Part shown: piece by piece, positions 14,283 to 64,000 of the stretch
Position numbering within the stretch: the first letter of the stretch is position 1
Layout: each line of letters starts with the position of its first letter
Source of the DNA: Octopus sinensis
Taxonomy: Eukaryota
Assembly (NCBI RefSeq): GCF_006345805.1
Contig: NC_043000.1
Span: forward strand, 98,580,001 to 98,644,000
Direction: 5' to 3'
DNA: 64,000 bases
Program-made: the position numbers and the translations under genes
Notes under the pieces: generated by a model
Databases searched by the model: none
What the model was told of the DNA's origin: nothing
Seen by the model: the letters and a program-made list of their open reading frames with translations, nothing else

Positions 14283-15961
14283 CTACGCCACACGGAATTT
14301 TGGCAATTCTGCTCATTGCTCCAGCTACACGATTATTGCTATTTTACAGGGTATAAGAATAACTATCGTGCTATGTCTGACAGCGTTTAGGTACACAATG
14401 AAAATACAAGTTCAATGTTTCCATTAATCTGTTACGCCCACAGGATAAGTGTATATTTTATAACATATTACTTCAAGCAGAAGGCTTTCAGTGTCGGAAA
14501 GAGTACTGCTGCCGATATAAGCCATTCCATTTCTATAATAGGTAGAAAGTCTGAAATTTAAAGCAAGTGGGGAGAATAGTGGATTATACCCACTTCAGTG
14601 CTCATCTGGTACTTCTTTTATTGACCCCGAAGGGACAAAAGGCAAAGTTGAACATCTGCGGAATTTACATTCAAAACGTAAAGCCGGAAGAAATGCGACG
14701 AATCATTTTGTCTGGCGTGCTAACGATTCTGTCTGCTCGGTGTTCTATTTAGGCCGATGTAATCAAGAAACCTCTTTCTTTAAAATTTCAGGCATTGTGC
14801 CCTTAATCAGAAATAGTTATAAACAGAAACATGAATAGCTAGCGAAATATAAGGGAGGTAACTCATACAGCATTATCGGAAATGATCATTCATAGATTTA
14901 AAGCAAATTATGTATAAGTTACTTTGAGAACGACATTTATTTCAGTGCTTTTTTCGTAATTATAAAAATGTACAGCATTTAATATATATCATAATTAGAT
15001 ATTATTAGACAACAAAATGCATTAGATAAAATAAAGTGTAATTTCTATTAGTAAAACATTACGCTTAGTTTTCTCCCTTAGACTGATAAATTCAGTGATT
15101 CTAAGCGACTAAGGGAAAAAAATATTTACTGCCTTCAGTCATTGGACTACGGCCCTACTGAAGTATTTGACTGGAGGCTATACTGGACAGTATAGAACTC
15201 ATTACTTATCTTTGAGGCTGGTATATATTTTATCGACCTATATTCGTCAAAAATCTAATTATGTGACATAATATGTTACACCGCAAAGTTTAACATGCGA
15301 TAAAAATACATAAAAAAGATAAACACACGCATACACACATTCGCACGCGCGACGAGCTTCAGTACAGTTTTCGACCACTAAGTTCCATTCACGAACCAGT
15401 GATCAACGGCCATAATCATATATACCTTTATATCTTTAACTTGTTTCAGTCGTACGTCTGAGGTCGTACTGGGGCGTCGCCTTAAATGGTATAATGTAAG
15501 AAATCGACTCCAGTTCATATTACTAAGTTTTTATTACTAGTGTACTTAATTTATCGGTCTATATTATCGAACCGCTAAGTTTACGTACCGTAAAGTGGGG
15601 GTGTCTGTAGGACCAATACAAGCACAAACATACACACAAACACAAACACATATACACACATATGTAAATATATAATGTGGGCTTCCAGCGATTTTACGTC
15701 TAGCAAGTTCACTCTCAAGGCACTGGGGCTGTCGGAAGACTCTTGACGAAGGTGCCGAGCAGTGGGATTGAGCCCGAATCAACGTGGTTGCAAATTAATC
15801 TCTTAACCGCACAACCATGTCTGTTCCGCTGACATACATACGTACATACATACATACATACATACATACATACATACATACATACATACATACATACAGA
15901 AACACACACAAACAAACACACGTACGTACATACATACATACATTCATATATTACATACATA

Positions 15962-16748
15962 CATTATGGCTGCCCCCTCGTTATCGAGTATGGCCATTGC
16001 ACCAAGCTTAACTGCTACTGGTGCTGTGATCAAAAGTGACTTTTTAGCCCAGCTAAAGATCTACAATGTCTTGTACAGAATTGGCAACTAAAACCTTTAC
16101 CGGTAATAGCCGGCTGTAGCTGTAACTGAGCTTCATGTACCTCTGCATGTCGTTTAAGTCCTCCTGCCGAATTACACTCTCTTCCACATGCCCGACAGAT
16201 ATGATTAGTATGGTGTGTTACACCACCACCACTGGCCAGGTTGTCACTCATCTGTCTCGCTTTATGACTACGAAGATGACTCTTGAGTCCAGCTTTACTG
16301 AGGCAGGGTCTTGCACAGACATTGCATGTCAGCATCAAAGGAAGACCCTTCCCTTCTGGAAGTGTAACAGTGATGCCCTTCCTGACATCCCTCCTTACTT
16401 TCTCATGTGCAACTCGAGATTTCTCAAAAGTGACTGTCCCCTCATGCATAATCCTTCTCCGCCTGCTACGATCAATAGCTATGCCTTCCCATGTGTCAGG
16501 AGAGATGCAAGCATCTCTTAAGGAAGCCTTCAGCAAGTCCTTATACCTCTTTTTTTGGTTTACGTGGAGGTCGTTCTCCTTTAGCTAACTCTCCATAAAA
16601 GAGTTGTTTTGGCATCCTTGAATCCTTCATCCTGACCAGATGACCACTCCATCTGAGCCTTTGCTTTATTACAAGAGCTTCTATACTTTCACACCGAGAG
16701 CCTTCCAATATTTCAAGATCACTGAAGCAGTCCTTCCACTTAATGCCA
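15962..16748 (-). mobile_element. RTE-BovB LINE 3' end with three C2H2 zinc fingers, copy 1
   Basis: LRWSGHLVRMKDSRMPKQLFYGEL...WEGIAIDRS, then CNVC..H..H, CRAC..H..H and CQFC..H. Confidence 0.88.
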
Positions 16749-16882
16749 TACATACATACATACATATACATACATACATACATACAACATACATACATAC
16801 ATATACATACATACATACAGAAACACACACAAACAAACACACGTACGTACATACATACATACATTCATATATTACATACATA

Positions 16883-17664
16883 CATTATGGCTGCCCCCTC
16901 GTTATCGAGTATGGCCATTGCACCAAGCTTAACTGCTACTGGTGCTGTGATCAAAAGTGACTTTTTAGCCCAGCTAAAGATCTACAATGTCTTGTACAGA
17001 ATTGGCAACTAAAACCTTTACCGGTAATAGCCGGCTGTAGCTGTAACTGAGCTTCATGTACCTCTGCATGTCGTTTAAGTCCTCCTGCCGAATTACACTC
17101 TCTTCCACATGCCCGACAGATATGATTAGTATGGTGTGTTACACCACCACCACTGGCCAGGTTGTCACTCATCTGTCTCGCTTTATGACTACGAAGATGA
17201 CTCTTGAGTCCAGCTTTACTGAGGCAGGGTCTTGCACAGACATTGCATGTCAGCATCAAAGGAAGACCCTTCCCTTCTGGAAGTGTAACAGTGATGCCCT
17301 TCCTGACATCCCTCCTTACTTTCTCATGTGCAACTCGAGATTTCTCAAAAGTGACTGTCCCCTCATGCATAATCCTTCTCCGCCTGCTACGATCAATAGC
17401 TATGCCTTCCCATGTGTCAGGAGAGATGCAAGCATCTCTTAAGGAAGCACAGTCCTTATACCTCTTTTTTTGGTTTATGTGGAGGTCGTTCTCCTTTAGC
17501 TAACTCTCCATAAAAGAGTTGTTTTGGCATCCTTGAATCCTTCATCCTGACCAGATGACCACTCCATCTGAGCCTTTGCTTTATTACAAGAGCTTCTATA
17601 CTTTCACACCGAGAGCCTTCCAATATTTCAAGATCACTGAAGCAGTCCTTCCACTTAATGCCAT
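16883..17664 (-). mobile_element. RTE-BovB LINE 3' end with three C2H2 zinc fingers, copy 2 (921-bp tandem duplication)
   Basis: Near-identical to copy 1. ORF offsets 16030 vs 16951. Confidence 0.88.
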
Positions 17665-17785
17665 ACATACATACATACATACATACATATACATACATAC
17701 ATACATACATACATACATACACATACATACATACATACATATGCGCGTGTATGTGAGTGTATGTGTGTATGAGTGAGTGTAATTA

Positions 17786-17990: not shown

Positions 17991-18602
17991 AATAAAAAAT
18001 GGAGTTAACGCAGGTTTAAACAAGTATTTTTTCTTTCTACATATGTTTCAAAAATTCCACTGATACTTATTCAAAAGAATAAAAGGTATAAACAATGCAA
18101 TCTTCTCTTCGGGAAAGTGAAAAAACGAAACTTGTCAATACGACATTTTAGCAAAAAATGATGGATTCGTATACGAATTCGTATACGAAGGTATAAACAA
18201 TGCAATCTTCTCTTCGGAAAGTGAAAAAACGAAACTTGTCAATACGACATTTTAGCAAAAAATGATGGATTCGTATACGAATCCATCATTTTTTGCTAAA
18301 ATGTCGTATTGACAAGTTTCGTTTTTTCACTTCCCCGAAGAGAAGATTGCATTGTTTATACCTTTTATTCTTTTGAATAAGTATCAGTGGAATTTTTGAA
18401 AAATATGTAGAAAGAAAAAATACTTGTTTAAACCTGCGTTAACTCCATTTTTTATTCCTATTATTCAAATATTCAACGTAAACACGAAGTTTCAACCTTT
18501 ATAAACAAGGAGTTACAACATCTTTACTTGTGAGATTTTTGCTGCCCTGGTAACTATTCATTCATTTATCCGTGTTAATTGTTAACAAGGTAAAATACAC
18601 TC

Positions 18603-25859: not shown

Positions 25860-25912
<53 letters not shown>
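25565..25912. repeat. (TA)n microsatellite
   Basis: Seen directly. Confidence 0.95.
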
Positions 25913-25915
<3 letters not shown>

Positions 25916-26960
25916 TAAGAAAGTTTGTTTGGTAAAGCACGTGGGTGAATATATAAGAAAATAGTTAAGAGTGAAAAAACGACAGAAAGCTTAAATGTTA
26001 AAAAATATATATATTTGTGTCAAAATGTCTGGGGAATATTGGAAAAATATTCTTTAGAAACAAAGAAGCCTTCACCATCATCACCCAGAATTTACCAATA
26101 CTTCATAAAAACCCAAAATTAAAGGAAATTCTAAACATACACCAAATCATTAAAAGCTACAAACAGCCTAAATCACTTAAAAAGATTCTCACAAAGGCAA
26201 AATTGTCTTCTAAAATTACGGATGCAAAAGTAAAAAAATGTGGTAGATCGAACTGTGCAACATGCCCTAACCTGCTAGAAGGATCAGAATTCCTCTTTAA
26301 AGAGGGACAAAAATTCAAGATCAAATCTAACTTTACTTGTGCCTCTGAAAACATAATTTATGTCATTAAATGCTCGGGCTGCCACCAAGACTACGTGGGT
26401 TCAACGGGACCATCACTCAGGCGTAGATGCACACTGCATCGACAACAGATTGCATTCCCAGAATATAGAATGATACCTTTTAGTGAGCACATTGAGAAAT
26501 GCGCAAAGCAACTACTGCCACAATTTTTAATCTTCCCATTTTACCAATGTGCTTTCGGATCATCAACACAAATGAGACTGAACAAGGAAATATTCTTCAT
26601 TGAAAAGTACAAACCCAGACTCAACCATCCGAACATACTGACACAGAGAAATTAACAAGGGAAAGGAAAAAAAATTTTAAGCGATTATCTCCCTTACACC
26701 GGAAGAAATCACTCACTACCTCCCCTTATTTAGAAATCTCCTGAAAATAAACACAACGATAACTTCATGCAATATAAACATAACGTCACAAGAAATTTGA
26801 AAAGCTACACGCGAAACCGGTATTTCTTTAAAAATTTTAAAATTATGTCATTTTAAGGTAAGGAAAAAATTTTTCCAATATTCTCCAGACATTTTGACAC
26901 AAATATATATATTTTTTAACATTTAAGCTTCTGTCGTTTTTTCACTCTTTACTATTTTCT

Positions 26961-34612: not shown

Positions 34613-34821
34613 ACGAATATACATCTATCTATCTACCTCTGCCCTCTCTCCCCTTGTATGTCTCTGTGTGTCAGTCTGCCTGTCTCTCTCTCCCCCTCTC
34701 TCTCTCCCTATATAATATATATATATATATTATATATATATATATATATAATACATTGGATCATTGGAAGGATTCCTGTGAGAGAGAAGAGAGAATTCTA
34801 TCTACGCTGGGAGAAAAACAT

Positions 34822-35479
34822 GGACTTCTTCCAAAAATATAGTGAAACCTTCAAAAATGAATTGGGTACAAATAATCCCTTCCTTAAGAAAATTACAATA
34901 AATAAAAAAGAAAAACCTAACAACCCACGAACAACCCCCAACTATCCTCCATACACTAAAAACAGAAATCACCCACAACCAACCTTTACAAATCACGCTA
35001 GACTTAACAGGGAACTAGCTGACAGAGGACGCGTCTATGAAAGAAATTACACCAAAAACAGAACAAACCAACAACATCCTAATACCAGACCCAACCACCA
35101 TACAGCACAATACGACACTAGGATAAGAAATACACCACACACAAATCACTACTACCCCATGAACCAAAACTACTGGTCCCCACTAAACACAAGACAAACG
35201 CAAAGAAACACTATGTCAAGCAACATCCCACATACAAGAAGTTCGAAACAAAAATATTTCCCATACAGAAATTTTACACACACCACAAGCATTAACAACC
35301 ATAGATTCCCACACACACACAACGATCGGAGGCAACAATACCACCACTCCCCCGACCAAATACCACACAACCTCACAGACAACTCATACAAACAAAATTA
35401 CACCCAACATTTTTTAGCCAGGGACCAGGGACACCAGGACACAGGCTGGAACCTAGTAATAAGGAAAAACCGAAGATAA
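34822..35479 (+). CDS. Upstream N/T/H/Q-rich ORF of the Penelope-like element
   Basis: Open frame MDFFQKYSETF...QHFLARDQ...RKNRR* overlaps the RT frame by ~65 nt. Confidence 0.55.
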
Positions 35480-37740
35480 TCAATCTTTCAACCAAACCTC
35501 TTCTAACATAAAAATTGACATCCTCGCAAAAGGGCTCAAATTTACACCAACTCCACGCAGAGCAAACCTAAATGAACTCAAGGATAATATAACAGAATTT
35601 TGCAGAAAATTAAGACTAGCAGAAGCATCAAACAGTTTCAATACTGAAGATGAATCACTAGTCAAGAACAAAAGTGAACACATCCCACACAGAGGAAGAA
35701 ATAAAGATCTTGACGAATTCTGTAACCACATTGAGAACTTCCCCTACCATACTATACATAAACAGAAAGCTAACCCAAATTTTAACACTACACAATGGAA
35801 AGAACTGATAGAACTCCAAAATGATGAAGATATAACCATTAAGGAAGCGGACAAGGGAAATGCAGTTGTAATAATGGATACATCATACTACAGAAATCTT
35901 GTAATTTCCTTACTTGATGAAGACCTACATTATGAAAAAATTACCAACTACACCCCACAAAAAATAATGAAAACTCTATCTTCACTAATTAAAACCCATG
36001 AAAAGGAACTGACAACCAAAGAGATTGATTTCCTAACAAACTTTAAATGCAAACCTAGCCTTTTCTATGGTCTGCCAAAAGTTCATAAAAGTCAAATTAT
36101 AAATGAAACCATTAAAAAATCACCAAAGACATACATACACACACCTAATCCGGGGGACCTAAAACTACGACCCATTGTAGCTGGCCCAACCTGTGAAACA
36201 CACAGACTAAGTCTACTTATGGACATCCTCCTCAAACCCTTCCTTAAACATATCGATAGCCATATCAGAGATGACTTAGATATGTTAAACCACCTTCCAA
36301 AAAAAAACCAAGGAAGAAACAATCCTGGTTTCATTTGATGTAGTCAACTTGTATACCAGTATACCTCATAATTATGGACTGGAGGCAATACAGTTCTGGT
36401 TAGACCAATTTCCGGAAGAAATACCAAAAAGGATCAGTAAGGAATTCATTACTAAATCAATTGAATTCATCCTACACAATAACCACTTCATGTTTGACAA
36501 TACATTTTACCGTCAAAAATCCGGAATTGCTATGGGTACAAGGGCAGCACCAGTCATTGCGAACTTAACAATGGGATACATGGAAATAATCATTTACCAG
36601 GAATCTCTATCAATCTTTGGAAACTCCCTCTCTCAATACATAAAAGAGAATTGGAAACGATTCCTAGACGATTGTTTCATTCTCTGGAATGAAAACATAG
36701 ATAAACTCCTAAAATTTAAAAACCTATTGAACAGCATAAACCCAAATATACAGTTCACAATGGAATACAACCAAAAGGAGCTCCCGTTCTTGGATATACT
36801 AATTAAAAAAATTAACCTTAAAATAGAAACAGACATTTTTTACAAAGCCACAGACGCCAAACAATACCTTCTTTTTAATTCATGCCACCCAAGACACACT
36901 AAAACAAACATCCCCTTCAACCTTGCAAGAAGGATATGCACAATAGTGTCAGAACAAAATACCAGGAACTTTAGACTGCAAGAACTCAAAAACACCCTAA
37001 TTGATAGACATTACCCAGCTCAACTCATAGAGGATGGGATCAGACGTGCAACAGAAATCAACATAGAAACTTTAAGAAAAGTTCAACACAACAACACACC
37101 TTCCCCGAAAATACTACCTTACATATCTACATACAACCCCAGAAACAAAGAAGCCTTCACCATCATCACCCAGAATTTACCAATACTTCATAAAAACCCA
37201 AAATTAAAGGAAATTCTAAACATACACCAAATCATTAAAAGCTACAAACAGCCTAAATCACTTAAAAAGATTCTCACAAAGGCAAAATTGTCTTCTAAAA
37301 TTACGGATGCAAAAGTAAAAAAATGTGGTAGATCGAACTGTGCAACATGTCCTAACCTATTGGAAGGATCAGAATTCTTCTTTAAAGAGGGACAGAAATT
37401 CAAGATCAAATCTAACTTTACTTGTGCCTCTGAAAACATAATTTATGTTATTAAATGCTCGGGCTGCCACCAAGACTACGTGGGTTCAACGGGACTATCA
37501 CTCAGGCGTAGATGCACACTGCATCGACAACAGATTGCATTCCCAGAATATAGAATGATACCTTTTAGTGAGCACATTGAGAAATGCGCAAAGCAAATAC
37601 TGCCACAATTTTTAATCTTCCCATTTTACCAATGTGCTTTCGGATCATCAACACAAATGAGACTGAACAAGGAAACATTCTTCATTGAAAAGTACAAACC
37701 CAGACTCAACCATCCGAACATACTGACACAGAGAAATTAA
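35410..37740 (+). CDS. Penelope RT-GIY-YIG polyprotein with two apparent 1-nt frameshifts (~35500 and the A-run at ~36300)
   Basis: ORF track 35874-36338 and 36349-37740, plus the upstream NLS/GLKFTPTP segment. Confidence 0.88.
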
Positions 37741-37877
37741 CAAGGAAAAAGGGAAAAAAAATTTTTAAGCGATTATCTCCCTCACACCGGAAGAAATCAC
37801 TCACTACCTCCCCTTATTTAGAAATCTCCTGTCAATAAACACAACGATAGCTCCATGCAATATAAACATAACGTCAC

Positions 37878-37917
37878 AAGAAATTTGAAAAGCTACACGC
37901 GAAACCGGTAATTTCTT
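37878..37917 (+). ncRNA. Minimal hammerhead, family 5 (U3-A8 variant), in the Penelope 3' pLTR
   Basis: aagaaat-TTGAAAA-gc-tacac-gc-GAAA-ccgg-TA-atttctt. 7-bp stem I and palindromic ACCGGT stem III. Confidence 0.78.
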
Positions 37918-38199
37918 TAAAAATTTTAAAATTATGTCATTTTAAGGAAAGGAAAAAAATTTTTCCAATATTCTCCAGACATTTTGACACAAATATATAT
38001 ATTTTTTAACATTTAAGCCTTCTGTCGTTTTTTCACACTTTACTATTTTCTTATATATTCACCCACGTGCTTTACCAACAAACTTTCTTATCTATATATA
38101 TATATAATATATATATATAATATATATATATATATATACACGTAAGCATACATTTATATGCAAGTGCATGTATATATGCATTATATGTTTTAAGAAACA

Positions 38200-41462: not shown

Positions 41463-41501
<39 letters not shown>

Positions 41502-41662
41502 CTGCCACTACGTCTGTGGTCAAATTCCGCCGAGGTCGACATTGTCTTTCATCATTTTGGTGTCGATAAATTAAGTACCAGTGAAACACTGGGATCGAAG
41601 TGATCAACTTGCTTCTCCCATCCAAATTCCAGGCCTCGTGCCTATAGTAGAAAAGATTAAAG

Positions 41663-41978
41663 ACTCCGCCGGTTACGACGACGAGGGTCCCAGCTGATAC
41701 GATCAACGGAACAGCTTGCTCGTGAAATTAACGTGCAAATGGTGAGCATTCCACAGACACGTGTAACCTTAACGTAGTTCTCGGGGATAATCAGCGTGAC
41801 ACAGAGAGTGACAAGCTGACCCTTTGAAATACCAGTACAACTCATTTTTGCCAGCTGAGTGGACTGGAGCAACGTGAAATAAAGTGTCTTGCTCAAGGAC
41901 ACAACGCGTCGCCGGAATCGAACTCACAACCTTACGATCATGAGCCGAATGCCCTAACCACTAAGCCACGCGCCCTCA
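41663..41978 (-). mobile_element. tRNA-derived SINE family C
   Basis: Minus strand ggcgcgTGGCTTAGTGG (A box)...GAGTTCGATTCC (B box), followed by the gtccttgagcaagacactt core. Confidence 0.8.
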
Positions 41979-42196
41979 CTTGAGTAGAAAAGATAATAGT
42001 AAAGGTAATAAAAACAATAATAATAATGATATATATATATCATATGTATGCATGTATGCATGTATGTATTATGTATGTATGTATGTAGTATTATATATGT
42101 ATGTATGTATGTATGATGTATGTATGTATCTATCTATCTATCATCTATCTATCTATCTATCTATCTATATATCTATATATCTATATATATATATAC

Positions 42197-42251
42197 TTAT
42201 TTTAAGCAGCAGAAAATTCAAATTTGTTGAATTTTCTGCTGCTTAAAATAA
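42197..42251. repeat. 25-bp perfect hairpin at the start of a TA-embedded 130-bp element
   Basis: ttattttaagcagcagaaaattcaa-atttg-ttgaattttctgctgcttaaaataa. Confidence 0.9.
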
Positions 42252-42773
42252 AGCATATTACTCTACCACTGGTATTTGAGTACTCTTTTCCACCTTGTTT
42301 CACATTTATGTGTTTACTCCGGTATATATATATATATAATATATATTATATATATATATTATATATTATAATATATATATAATATATATATGTATATATA
42401 TTATATATGTATGTGTGTATGTGTGTGTTTATGTATATATACAAACATGCATTAAACCTACTAATTGTTGTTCAGGGAAGATAGAGTACAGTGTACGTTT
42501 TTTCCAATATATATTTATGCCTACTTTTCATCGGTAATACTTTTTGTGTATGCATATAAATATGGATGTAAATGTTTACCCCACAAAATGTGCACTTGAT
42601 GTTTGAAACTCCGAAGAAGATATAGAGTGATGCTCATGCATTTAACTATGAGTGCACTGCATCTTATTACAAAAACAGCAGTAAGTTAATGAACTTCATG
42701 ACATAATTTCATATGACATTGTTATTTTATCTTTATTTTATTATATATATATATATAATATATATATAATATA

Positions 42774-42823
<50 letters not shown>

Positions 42824-43075
42824 TTAACAATTAAGGATAACTTTTTAATAAGGAATCTTAACAAGAGATTATCAGGTAGTTAGCGTGAAAAACCTCATAA
42901 GAGAAAAAAATTCGAAAATAATTTCTTTCCTTTTGAAAATATTAATTTATATTGTATAGAGGGCATTATTACACATAAATGCCTCACACTAAAAGGGACA
43001 TAAGTCATTACTACCAAAATTTCACTAATCGTACCTAATGCAGTTTTCAAAGCAGGACATTTAAAAAATGAATTT

Positions 43076-43140
43076 AGTTCTATATCACCTGTGATTTCAC
43101 ACTTAACGCATCAAATACGTCTATGTTCATCAGTAGAACT
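43076..43140 (-). ncRNA. Type I hammerhead ribozyme, family 7 copy 1
   Basis: agttcta-CTGATGA-aca...tgt-GAAA-tcac-ag-gtga-TA-tagaact. Confidence 0.88.
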
Positions 43141-43554
43141 GACTCTGAACACATTATAAATAAACGATCAATATACCTGGCGAAGTCGAACAGACATCTG
43201 CTCTCTCCGGCGAAGCACATGGAAATGTTTATAAATCATATATTCGGTAAATGGCGGGCTTTCTCGAACTGCATGTCGGGTAGGAAAAGTATTTTTTCGG
43301 AATAAATTTAACAATTAAGGATAACTTCTTAATAAGGAATCTTAACAAGAGATTATCAGGTAGTTAGCATGAAATCTAAGAGAAAAAAATTCGAAAATAA
43401 TTTTTTTCCTTTTGAAAATATTAATTTATATTGTATAGAGGGCATCATTACACATAAATGCCTCATACTAAGAGGGACATAAGTCATTACTACCAAAATT
43501 TCACTAATCGTACCTAATGCAGTTTTCAAAGCAGGACGTTTAAAAAATGAATTT

Positions 43555-43619
43555 AGTTCTATATCACCTGTGATTTCACACTTAACGCATCAAATACGTC
43601 TATGTTCATCAGTAGAACT
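43555..43619 (-). ncRNA. Type I hammerhead ribozyme, family 7 copy 2
   Basis: Identical motif 479 bp away. Confidence 0.88.
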
Positions 43620-43780
43620 GATTCTGAACACATCATAAATAAATAAATAAATATATATATATATATATTATATATATATATATTATATATTATATATATA
43701 TATATTATATATATATATATGTACAGTAATATACAGAATACGAATAGATATGCATATACGTTTGTGTGTGTGCGTGCGTG

Positions 43781-43814
<34 letters not shown>

Positions 43815-45132
43815 ATGTATGTATGTATGCATGTATGTATGAATATATGAATATATATATATGTGTGTGTTTGTGTATGAATATACTTATATATATATAT
43901 GTATGATGTAGATATATGTGTATGCGTGTATATGTGCATCTGTCTGTATATTTAGACAGAGAGTGAGAGAGATAGAGAGAGATAAAAAGAGAGAGAGAAG
44001 GAGAGAGAGTCCGAAGGCAAGAGAAAGATAAATAAATATACGAACTCTATGATATGAAAGTAAAGTAGAGTGTATTGAACTGTTATTGTGTCTATGTGTT
44101 ACATAAATGGACAGTGAAGGTTAGAGTGGAGAAACAGAGGCGGGCCATATTGGCATAATAATTGAAGAGAAAAAGCGACAAACCCGGAAACGAAATGAGT
44201 TGAAAACTCCGATTATCATCGGATATATTCGGAAACCGTTCACTTCTGTCTCCGTAATAATTTATTATTTAATGATATTCAATAATTTATTACCTAAAGA
44301 CATTTCATTGTAGTGAGCTTATATCTTATTCTATATAACATGATTTATACTGATATTAATGCTATGGACTCCATTAAATACATAGGACAGATGGAAGTCT
44401 GTGAAACATACGAACTTTCAAGAACATTTGAAATGAAAGAGAATAATATAATGAGCACTACGTTCGTCATATTTCTACCGTATGTCTGTCTTTATACTTC
44501 ACCTAGCCAAAAAGCAACCTCCACCAGAGACTTACATACATCTGCGCACACATTACAAACATATGACTGTTTCATAATTCTTTGTTATTTTAATTTCTTA
44601 TATATGTGTTCTGACTCTCTGCACGATGAGTTCAATCACGCTGAAGTCGATTTTGCTTTTCATCCTTTCGGAACCGATAAAAACTACCAGTCAAGGGCGA
44701 TGGTTGGTTAGCGGGGTTGTTAAAGTATTGAACTGAATGCCTTGCTGTAATTTTTCGGATTGGTATATTATGAGTTCAAATCACGTCCCAATCATCATCA
44801 TAAAAAAAAAATTATAATAATAATAAACGAAGTATACAGTGACCATCTGCCAGAAGTTACGACTGATACTCAGTATCTAGAAATTTGAAAAACCAATGGG
44901 AAACAGCTTCCTTAGTTCGACCGGAAGATCGACTGTCACTGCCAATACTGTCTTATCAAATTTCCATCCATGACTGATGCTTTCTAATAAGTGTGATAAG
45001 ATAATAGGAAAGTTTAATTCTTTTCTTTTCAAATATGTAAGAGCGTGAACAAAGAGGAATAGAATATTCTTAAAGCAATATTTCTATACAATTAATTCTA
45101 AAATTATTCAACAATTTATATTTTCTGTCCCG

Positions 45133-45630
45133 CTGTGGGGCGGTTATCTTCCCCTGTCAGTGCATAGACATGTGCTTTTTATGCGGTTCTAAGGGTCTTT
45201 GGCTCTTATTTCTAGCAATGTAGGTCCTACCCTACACTCTTAGTCATAATAAGTAATAAATGAATTTTTTCTTTTTGATTTTATATTGCGTATAGCCACC
45301 TTCGCTATTTTACAATTTTCACACTGCCATTTTGCGGAATCATCCATTGATTCATATGGTAAATACTGTACACTGACAGTCAGATTTAGCTCAACCATCA
45401 GCTATGGAATATTTACCACAGATGAGCTTTAATTTTAAGTGAAACTAGACTAGCATGGTGATCGCGCTTGCTATGGGGCAGTTATCTTCCCTGTCAGAGC
45501 TTTTTTGCGATTCAGAGGGTCTTTGACTCTTATTTCTAGTAATGTAGTGCTACTCTGCGTCCTAAGTCACAATTAGTGACAAATGAAGTTTTCCGTTTTG
45601 ATTTTATATTGCGTATAACCGCCTTCGTTA
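45133..45630. repeat. Diverged direct duplication with ~338-bp period
   Basis: ggggc(g/a)gttatcttccc...ttatttctag...ttttgattttatattgcgtata occurs at 45133-45305 and 45471-45630. Confidence 0.7.
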
Positions 45631-45632
45631 TG

Positions 45633-45663
<31 letters not shown>

Positions 45664-46233: not shown

Positions 46234-46785
46234 TAGCAACGATTTGCCTCACCACACACCGAATTTAGAAATAGCAGTCAAAGAGTTATGGCTATTCTTT
46301 CTACTTAAAAGGTGATGTCTTCTTGAGGTGATGTCTTCTAGTGCCTCCAAATTTAATACACAATTATTAATAATTGAGACGCAATTATTTATAATTGAAG
46401 AGTCCTACGCTGAAGAGAAAAATAGTCGGGTAAGACATAATTATTTAATTTTTATGCTTTCCTATGACTTAATTTCGAAACGTACGTCCGTAGGTGACTT
46501 AATATAGAATGATTGTCGTCATTTCTTTCTCTTTTGCCTGCGTTGTTTGCCTTTTAAGTGCTGTGGTTTTACTGGGATCTCCCTTTTAAGTAGAAAGAAT
46601 AGCCATAACTCTTTGACTGCTATTTCTAAATTCGGTGTGTGTTAAGGCAAATCGTTGCTAAATCCTTATTTACTTAGTATTACTTAAACCTTCCTTGAAT
46701 GGGGCTTTTACATGCCGAAATCTACTTGGTGAAATTAATGATTATTCCAAATTAATTAATTTCACCCTATATTATTATTGATAAT
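46234..46785 (+). mobile_element. (TA)n-embedded Penelope-type non-autonomous element with an inverted arm
   Basis: 46234-46312 is the reverse complement of 46582-46660. It contains a hammerhead. Confidence 0.82.
46404..46494 (+). ncRNA. Type I hammerhead ribozyme, family 8
   Basis: cctacg-CTGAAGA-gaaa...tttc-GAAA-cgtacg-TC-cgtagg, a canonical GUC site. Confidence 0.9.
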
Positions 46786-63803: not shown

Positions 63804-64000
63804 TTAAATAGCTAAATACCTGCTATGTAGCTAGAACTACATGACTCAGAATGTTCTGAGGAGAGTTGGTTGTTATTTCTAGTGAATAAGATGACTAGAA
63901 ACTGGTACGTTAGCTCAAAATATTTTTTAAAAAGACAGAATATAAAATGAATAAATGAAGAAGTAAAATTGTTTATAAAGAGTGTATAAACGAACGGATT

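Follow-up and report, generated by a model that had tools for sequence, protein, structure and literature searches.

Is a short tandem repeat lying in a TA microsatellite of Octopus sinensis the retroposed trace of a self-cleaving circular RNA, and which machinery placed it there? This question is raised by the locus at 42822..43648 of the window (the whole stretch of DNA analysed here, 64,000 nt), for which an earlier note had proposed a tandem hammerhead monomer of about 480 nt. Animal non-LTR retrozymes have already been described, with units of 170-400 nt in coral, mussel and axolotl (PMC7229834), and the value of this locus is that of a test case: both the retrotransposon that mobilises animal retrozymes and the use of the circle as template are still matters of inference (PMC7229834, 10.64898/2026.07.22.740005).

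Tandem organization and insertion site

Based on period, alignment, repeat and ORF scans together with the circle fold, the insertion and its flanks were divided into the following features:

42822..43648, minus strand: whole insertion, segments a (with hammerhead), b and a', non-coding (period, alignment, ORF scan)
43302..43643, minus strand: copy 1, segment a, with a 5' truncation some 30 nt upstream of the core of the ribozyme (alignment)
43165..43301, minus strand: segment b, single-copy, GC-richer than the rest (alignment, circle fold)
42822..43164, minus strand: copy 2, segment a', reaching the 3' end of the element (alignment)
42742..42821, no strand: (TA)n target flank on the 3' side (repeat scan)
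43649..43917, no strand: (TA)n-rich target flank on the 5' side (repeat scan)

Read on the minus strand from 43648 to 42822, the insertion has the structure a + b + a', or 1.73 units (827/479) of a repeat with a best period of 479 nt. Alignment of the two copies (43643-43302 and 43164-42818) showed 95.7% identity across 347 columns, the differences amounting to 9 substitutions and 2 gap events per 342 columns. The approximately 1.7 tandem copies and the TA flanks described in the earlier note were thus both recovered, the TA microsatellite being present on each side with no readable target duplication (longer than 4 bp in non-LTR retrozymes that have one). TRF did not include this 1.73-copy locus in its repeat calls. 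All nine substitutions between the copies are transitions, and RNA editing was considered as their source and rejected, the controls in the window being 13/5, 18/7 and 21/8 (approximately P 0.05).

The longest Met-started frames of the element, among the top three per strand, were 46 aa in the sense and 60 aa in the antisense direction, and the ORF scan detected no stop-free circular frame in the 479-nt unit, in agreement with the absence of an ORF reported before. The unit is also unrelated to that at 445-2394, as had been stated, the local alignment scores being equalled by 157/200 and 28/200 shuffles. ARAGORN returned zero tRNAs in 41500-44200, and the ribozyme strand contained neither a Pol III A box nor a B box that matches the consensus exactly. 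Segment b contains two B-box-like GTTCGA motifs (43186 and 43264), which are inexact against the consensus. Outside the element, 41903-41973 (minus strand) gave a weak Rfam tRNA match of 26.5 bits, under the gathering threshold and without an ARAGORN call, which is possibly a SINE head.

Two identical type I hammerheads

Descriptor scans of the minus strand detected two identical 65-nt hammerheads (43619-43555 and 43140-43076):

43555..43619, minus strand: hammerhead 1, type I, predicted cut after the A at 43562 (descriptor scans)
43076..43140, minus strand: hammerhead 2, type I, predicted cut after the A at 43083 (descriptor scans)

Each motif contains the core CUGAUGA (at 43612 and 43133), GAAA, and an A-U-A site with H17 at 43562 and 43083, so that the predicted cut sites are spaced 479 nt. 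The CUGANGA / GAAA / UH core, three helices and open end at stem I are those of type I, and not of the type III hammerhead that characterizes plant LTR retrozymes. Stems I, II and III comprise 7, 4 and 5 pairs; the last pair of stem III would leave a loop of just 2 nt, so that a realistic stem III has 4 pairs and a tetraloop. The 4 bp of stem II are followed by an extension of another 7 bp, and stem I can be extended by 4 pairs past a small internal loop. A strict hammerhead descriptor matched the window at 6 places, compared with none in any of 200 shuffled windows. The two identical ribozymes 479 apart, with their 7-bp stem I and AUA site, were found exactly as the earlier note had them.

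Two further statements in that note required qualification. Neither in the window (E 1) nor in 43040-43640 (E 10) did the Rfam hammerhead models give a match, the returns being microsatellite-driven miRNA noise, and these models also miss family A (unit 445-2394), whose loop 2 is long. In light of this miss, the label 'canonical' applies to the core and stems of the motif and not to its loops. As for the identity of the ribozyme between copies, the 65-nt motifs are indeed identical, but the selection that this implied is not borne out, since identity of a fixed 65-nt stretch is within chance (P 0.12), and so is the longest stretch free of differences, 83 nt (P 0.59).

Predicted RNA and its folds

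Cleavage at both sites would release one unit, for which the following features were predicted:

43083..43561, minus strand: predicted 479-nt monomer or circular RNA (circular fold)
43603..43632 (same at 43124-43153), minus strand: predicted alternative hairpin in which the CUGAUGA core pairs with the upstream strand (fold)

The predicted 479-nt product has a GC content of 32.6% and is 63% paired as a circle. Its circular minimum free energy was -108.5 kcal/mol, compared with -84.1 +/- 6.4 kcal/mol for dinucleotide shuffles, not one of which in 100 was as low (z -3.8), and the circle of the opposite strand reached -85.2 kcal/mol, leaving the ribozyme strand 23 kcal/mol better.

The hammerhead itself is not the preferred fold of this RNA in nearest-neighbour models. 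The free fold with the alternative hairpin was more stable than the forced hammerhead fold by 5.3-5.5 kcal/mol, and the motif alone gave -14.7 kcal/mol free and -11.8 kcal/mol forced. Relative to the ensemble, the active fold was higher by 4.0 kcal/mol for the motif alone and 5.8 kcal/mol in the circle, and in the full transcript by 4.1 kcal/mol at site 2 and 11.5 kcal/mol at site 1. In the predicted circle, the upstream strand that otherwise pairs with the core is taken up by segment b; copy 1 has no segment b upstream. Because the folding model contains no tertiary term and was run without an active control, the disfavoured active fold is a reason for caution rather than a disproof. Double cleavage giving a 479-nt RNA able to circularize, as proposed earlier, is partly supported: it fits the anatomy, the strand-specific circle fold, the family and the published animal retrozymes, but the nearest-neighbour models disfavour the active fold. 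That the 479-nt family makes circles appears somewhat favoured; efficient release of the 479-nt RNA from the locus 42822-43648 itself is rather doubtful.

The 479-nt family in public contigs

The 479-nt unit was partly present (at most 0.45 of its words) in 20/24 listed runs, representing 10 studies and 4 coded organisms, none of the 24 being recorded as RNA. Contigs of four of these runs (X1, X8, X13 and X17) were aligned to 42816-43320. The fitting contigs numbered 24 and 46 in two of the four and 488 and 2676 in the others, and their variants were numerous. Contig depth along the unit, which jumps with variants, does not represent copy number here. Two runs of guessed RNA type (46 and 24 contigs) hold variants, the longest piece being 386 nt with 34 differences; these may be DNA, and as contigs they carry no information on strand, ends or circles. 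Contig ends did not accumulate at the cut site, a signal that contigs would not retain in any case.

The head-to-tail order of the unit was recovered from both sides. The order a to b was bridged by X1 record 8, X13 record 16 and X8 record 32, and the order b to a by X8 record 30 and X17 records 22 and 24. In X8, a joint from 43282 to 42823 was found at a depth of 478 with 22 letters between, giving a unit of about 482 nt. No loose end fell at the b/a junction among the loose ends listed for the four runs' contigs, and the share of laid contigs continuing into unlike sequence was 0 in X1 and 0.05 in X8.

Most of the ribozyme variants listed preserve its pairing. At 43123/43102, U-G is replaced by A-U (both changes are listed, their co-occurrence in one molecule not being directly seen), and U-G to U-A at 43109, C-G to U-G at 43119 and A-U to G-U at 43134 were also detected. 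No core nucleotide varied in the 40 of 79 variant rows listed. Other variants do not keep pairing: at 43099 the commonest family letter is C compared with U here, which breaks A10.1-U11.1 unless 43126 changes (not among the rows listed), and another, at 43140, disrupts the outermost pair of stem I.

Three letters common to both copies (42867, 43031 and 43055) differ from approximately 100% of the X1 family depth, and the copy differences at 43155, 43143, 42993 and 42925 are private to copy 2, copy 1 carrying the family letter. Descent of both copies from a single template, followed by decay, would produce such shared letters and copy-2-private changes. A subfamily or species difference would also fit the letters common to both copies.

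One hairpin region of the unit marks a possible end of other family members:

42948..42990, minus strand: hairpin region beyond which other members seem to run out into TA repeats, giving an alternative 3' end at 42948 (loose ends, fold)

Contigs leaving the unit at 42948 into TA-like letters numbered 40 in X1 and 1 in X13, which suggests a second 3' end of the family at this position. Beyond these runs, a ribozyme pattern scan of metagenome contigs gave 0 matches, and the viral-contig match L001 was rejected as chance, consisting of 23 nt in a long phage-type ORF with the rest of the ribozyme absent.

A Penelope-like element and other hammerhead repeats in the window

The same window contains a possible partner and several comparable insertions:

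34752-38090, plus strand: Penelope-like element, near full-length, candidate mobiliser (RT, linker, GIY-YIG-like end, TA on both sides)
25905-26960: 5'-truncated Penelope-like copy with an inverted 5' arm
445-2394: unit A, 2.3 minus-strand copies plus 1.7 inverted copies
46236-46776, plus strand: element C, third hammerhead element, with 5' inversion and TA repeats
45132-45635, plus strand: older, decayed two-copy repeat with a period of about 338

The Penelope-like element matched Pfam RVT_1 at E 2.7e-6, short of the curated cut-off, and carries a C-x4-C-x2-C linker as well as a GIY-YIG-like end at the C terminus; its top Atlas match (0.97) was an RVT_1/GIY-YIG/HTH_animal cluster, and a PDB sequence search with its RT frame gave nothing significant. 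The coding frames are interrupted near 35477 and 36300. A minimal hammerhead with a U3-A8 core lies inside the element at 37878-37917, a variant already described for Penelope-like elements (PMC4209133). The divergence of the two Penelope copies (18 substitutions/911) is close to that of the 479-nt copies (9/342). In the truncated copy, the inverted arm bears a terminal 'tail' of about 36 nt that is missing from the direct end.

Unit A has TA flanks and contains full hammerheads in which loop 2 is long and whose cut sites are spaced 485 nt; its copies differ mostly by 1-nt gaps, as from long-read errors. Element C likewise has a full hammerhead with a long loop 2, its core at 46410 and a GUC site at 46488. 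The 3' ends of A and C are related to each other (z 4.5-6.0) and unrelated to the 479-nt element. The decayed repeat at 45132-45635, 1.5 kb from the 479-nt element, has a hammerhead-like core at about 45420 that is one letter off; an 18-nt motif of this repeat is common to units A and C and to 63866-63884. The Penelope-like element, its truncated copy and units A and C all lie in (TA)n, three of them with 5' inversions. Partial tandems, 5' inversions and a (TA)n bias are marks of Penelope-type insertion (PMC8557442).

No sequence kinship between the 479-nt unit and the Penelope-like element was significant in the window. Against the Penelope pLTR, one of 14 comparisons was reached by only 4/200 shuffles, which is not significant for that number, and against the Penelope 3' end the unit ranked 5 of 53 locally (z 2.0) and 17 of 53 globally; a relationship of the last 126 nt of the element to the Penelope 3' end was rejected for this lack of significant similarity. 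A shared 3' hairpin signal was also rejected for the 479-nt element, whose own end, at -6.2 kcal/mol, falls in the lower half of 55 TA flanks; in hairpin strength, units A and C stand at ranks 4 and 8 among these 55, and the Penelope ends have almost none. The strongest of the 55 is a near-perfect 27-bp hairpin (-33 kcal/mol) adjoining a TA run at 42196-42255. Two other repeats of the window are a two-copy tandem of about 920 bp at 15832-17739, with a zinc-finger-like LINE 3' end and near-identical copies, and a palindromic 104-nt repeat at 18083-18339 that forms a long hairpin. Because the TA target is common to the 479-nt element and the Penelope-like element and no significant sequence match joins them, the partner is inferred and the neighbour indicates only the kind of candidate.

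The earlier note had also suggested that the similar unit lengths (479 and 485 nt) reflect a constraint of the mobilizing machinery. This idea is weak in view of the period of about 338 nt only 1.5 kb away and of the published range of 51-972 bp for non-LTR retrozyme units (10.64898/2026.07.22.740005), and a size constraint near 480 nt has little support. It enters a broader joint reading, in which several viroid-like hammerhead circles without kinship to one another (the 479-nt and 485-nt units as a minimum), not derived from any Penelope pLTR, would borrow one Neptune-type RT/endonuclease by structure alone; rolling reverse transcription would copy them into (TA)n, their size would be set near 480 nt by that protein, and the upstream hairpin, freed by segment b, would act as a switch of the ribozyme that restricts cleavage to full units. 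Taken as a whole this combination is improbable; if true, it would provide a natural pair for asking who mobilizes animal retrozymes.

Origin of the insertion

We consider the element at 42822-43648 to be a non-LTR retrozyme of a many-copy 479-nt family, whose RNA would self-cleave and form circles and which a Penelope-like RT/endonuclease would have copied into a TA microsatellite (probability roughly 0.7). Its parts differ in strength: membership of a retroposed hammerhead family is very probable, and mobilization by Penelope-type machinery is quite probable. In the proposed mechanism, the minus strand would be transcribed by read-through, cleavage after AUA at each ribozyme would give unit-length RNA, and a host ligase would close this RNA to a circle; RtcB is known to ligate mussel and axolotl retrozyme RNA in vitro (PMC7229834). 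Target-primed reverse transcription by a Penelope-type protein would then begin, at the 42822 end, from a nick in (TA)n and extend over 827 nt, and post-insertion decay would account for about 1.3-1.6% per copy. Since the insertion spans the intact cleavage junction twice, this mechanism calls for a circle or an uncleaved multimer as template; a cleaved linear monomer would have stopped the copy after 261 nt. The insertion fits a circle and an uncleaved multimer alike.

That ambiguity is the starting point of another account, in which the element is a non-autonomous repeat of Penelope type whose template was multimeric RNA left uncleaved, its ribozyme being weak or held off and circles irrelevant to mobility. 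The disfavoured active fold and the upstream hairpin that pairs with the core agree with this, as do two published cases: ribozyme mutants of anole Poseidon do not lower insertion, unprocessed RNA being its main substrate in vitro (PMC11167929), and among nine Xenopus dimers one was cleaved in vitro and eight were not (10.64898/2026.07.22.740005). We regard it as unlikely, given the full core, stable stem III and pair-keeping variants of the ribozyme, the strand-specific circular fold, and the similarly laid-out coral and mussel retrozymes that cleave and accumulate as circles (PMC7229834). A further possibility is that the unit belongs to an autonomous Penelope-like element as its pLTR, which would make the locus a 5'-truncated insertion of tandem pLTRs; the earlier note itself had raised the pLTR of an autonomous element. 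A partial tandem, a TA target and a hammerhead 261 nt from the 3' end do resemble Penelope pLTRs (PMC4209133, PMC8557442), and 24/57 Xenopus retrozyme families match Repbase, 21/22 of them Penelope-like (10.64898/2026.07.22.740005). The contigs listed do not support this origin: several runs link b with a at both of its ends, the listed loose ends avoid the b/a junction, the run-on shares in X1 and X8 are those given above, and no RT/GIY-YIG ORF lies beside the unit at the locus or among the loose ends listed. Together with the usually minimal form of metazoan Penelope ribozymes (PMC4209133), as at 37878-37917, compared with the full stem III here, and the lack of a significant match to the neighbouring Penelope-like element, this makes a pLTR origin quite improbable.

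Insertion of a single ribozyme monomer that was later duplicated as DNA, as in the birth of a satellite, would also produce letters common to both copies and absent from the family, and local amplification is favoured for some tandem arrays (10.64898/2026.07.22.740005); it is very improbable, since the head-to-tail junction is the family form in the runs of two organisms and a one-off local duplication would not produce such a form. An endogenized infectious viroid-like RNA unrelated to retrotransposons would match the circle-like fold and a size within the viroid range, and it is scarcely credible for a ribozyme present on one strand only, in a large genomic family in DNA-like runs, with no metagenome match and, as the lone viral-contig match, the 23 nt of phage-type ORF mentioned above. 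The retrozyme reading thus remains the one preferred here. With a near full-length Penelope-like element and several TA-inserted hammerhead repeats bearing Penelope-type insertion marks within 64 kb, a test of trans-mobilization could easily be designed.

Comparison with known systems

Neptune-type Penelope elements share with the 479-nt element the partial tandem, the 5' truncation, the (TA)n target, a hammerhead near the 3' end and, apparently, two 3' ends (PMC8557442, PMC4209133, PMC11167929). Unlike them, the 479-nt element has no RT/endonuclease ORF, its hammerhead is full rather than minimal, and its 3' ends are 126 nt apart compared with the 30-40 nt 'tail' of the Neptune type. It also differs from the retrozymes regarded as Penelope derivatives in 10.64898/2026.07.22.740005, in that no pLTR relative of the 479-nt unit was found in the window. 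The set analysed in that source comprises 31 vertebrates, 3 insects and 1 coral, apparently without this kind of host, and we found no report of cephalopod retrozymes in the literature searched, although supplements may hold this host.

The closest likeness is to the metazoan retrozymes of PMC7229834. As in those, each unit carries a type I hammerhead, the tandem is non-coding and of low GC content (32.6%), the predicted circle is self-paired, neither PBS/PPT nor an LTR pair around an inner domain is present, and Penelope-like elements co-occur. The standard loop 1-loop 2 layout is absent here, as it is from the mussel ribozymes described in that source. The element departs from its retrozymes in a unit of 479 nt compared with 170-400 nt and in insertion into (TA)n with no readable target duplication. 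The size lies inside the 51-972 bp range of 10.64898/2026.07.22.740005, and the locus presents the two consecutive units with complete hammerheads and motif MFE below -5 kcal/mol of the working definition given there. Tandem non-coding hammerhead units, a GC content below 50%, a head-to-tail family and a stable predicted circle are the features of non-LTR retrozymes, and the element at 42822-43648 is, as far as its letters indicate, likely to be a further animal member of this described class.
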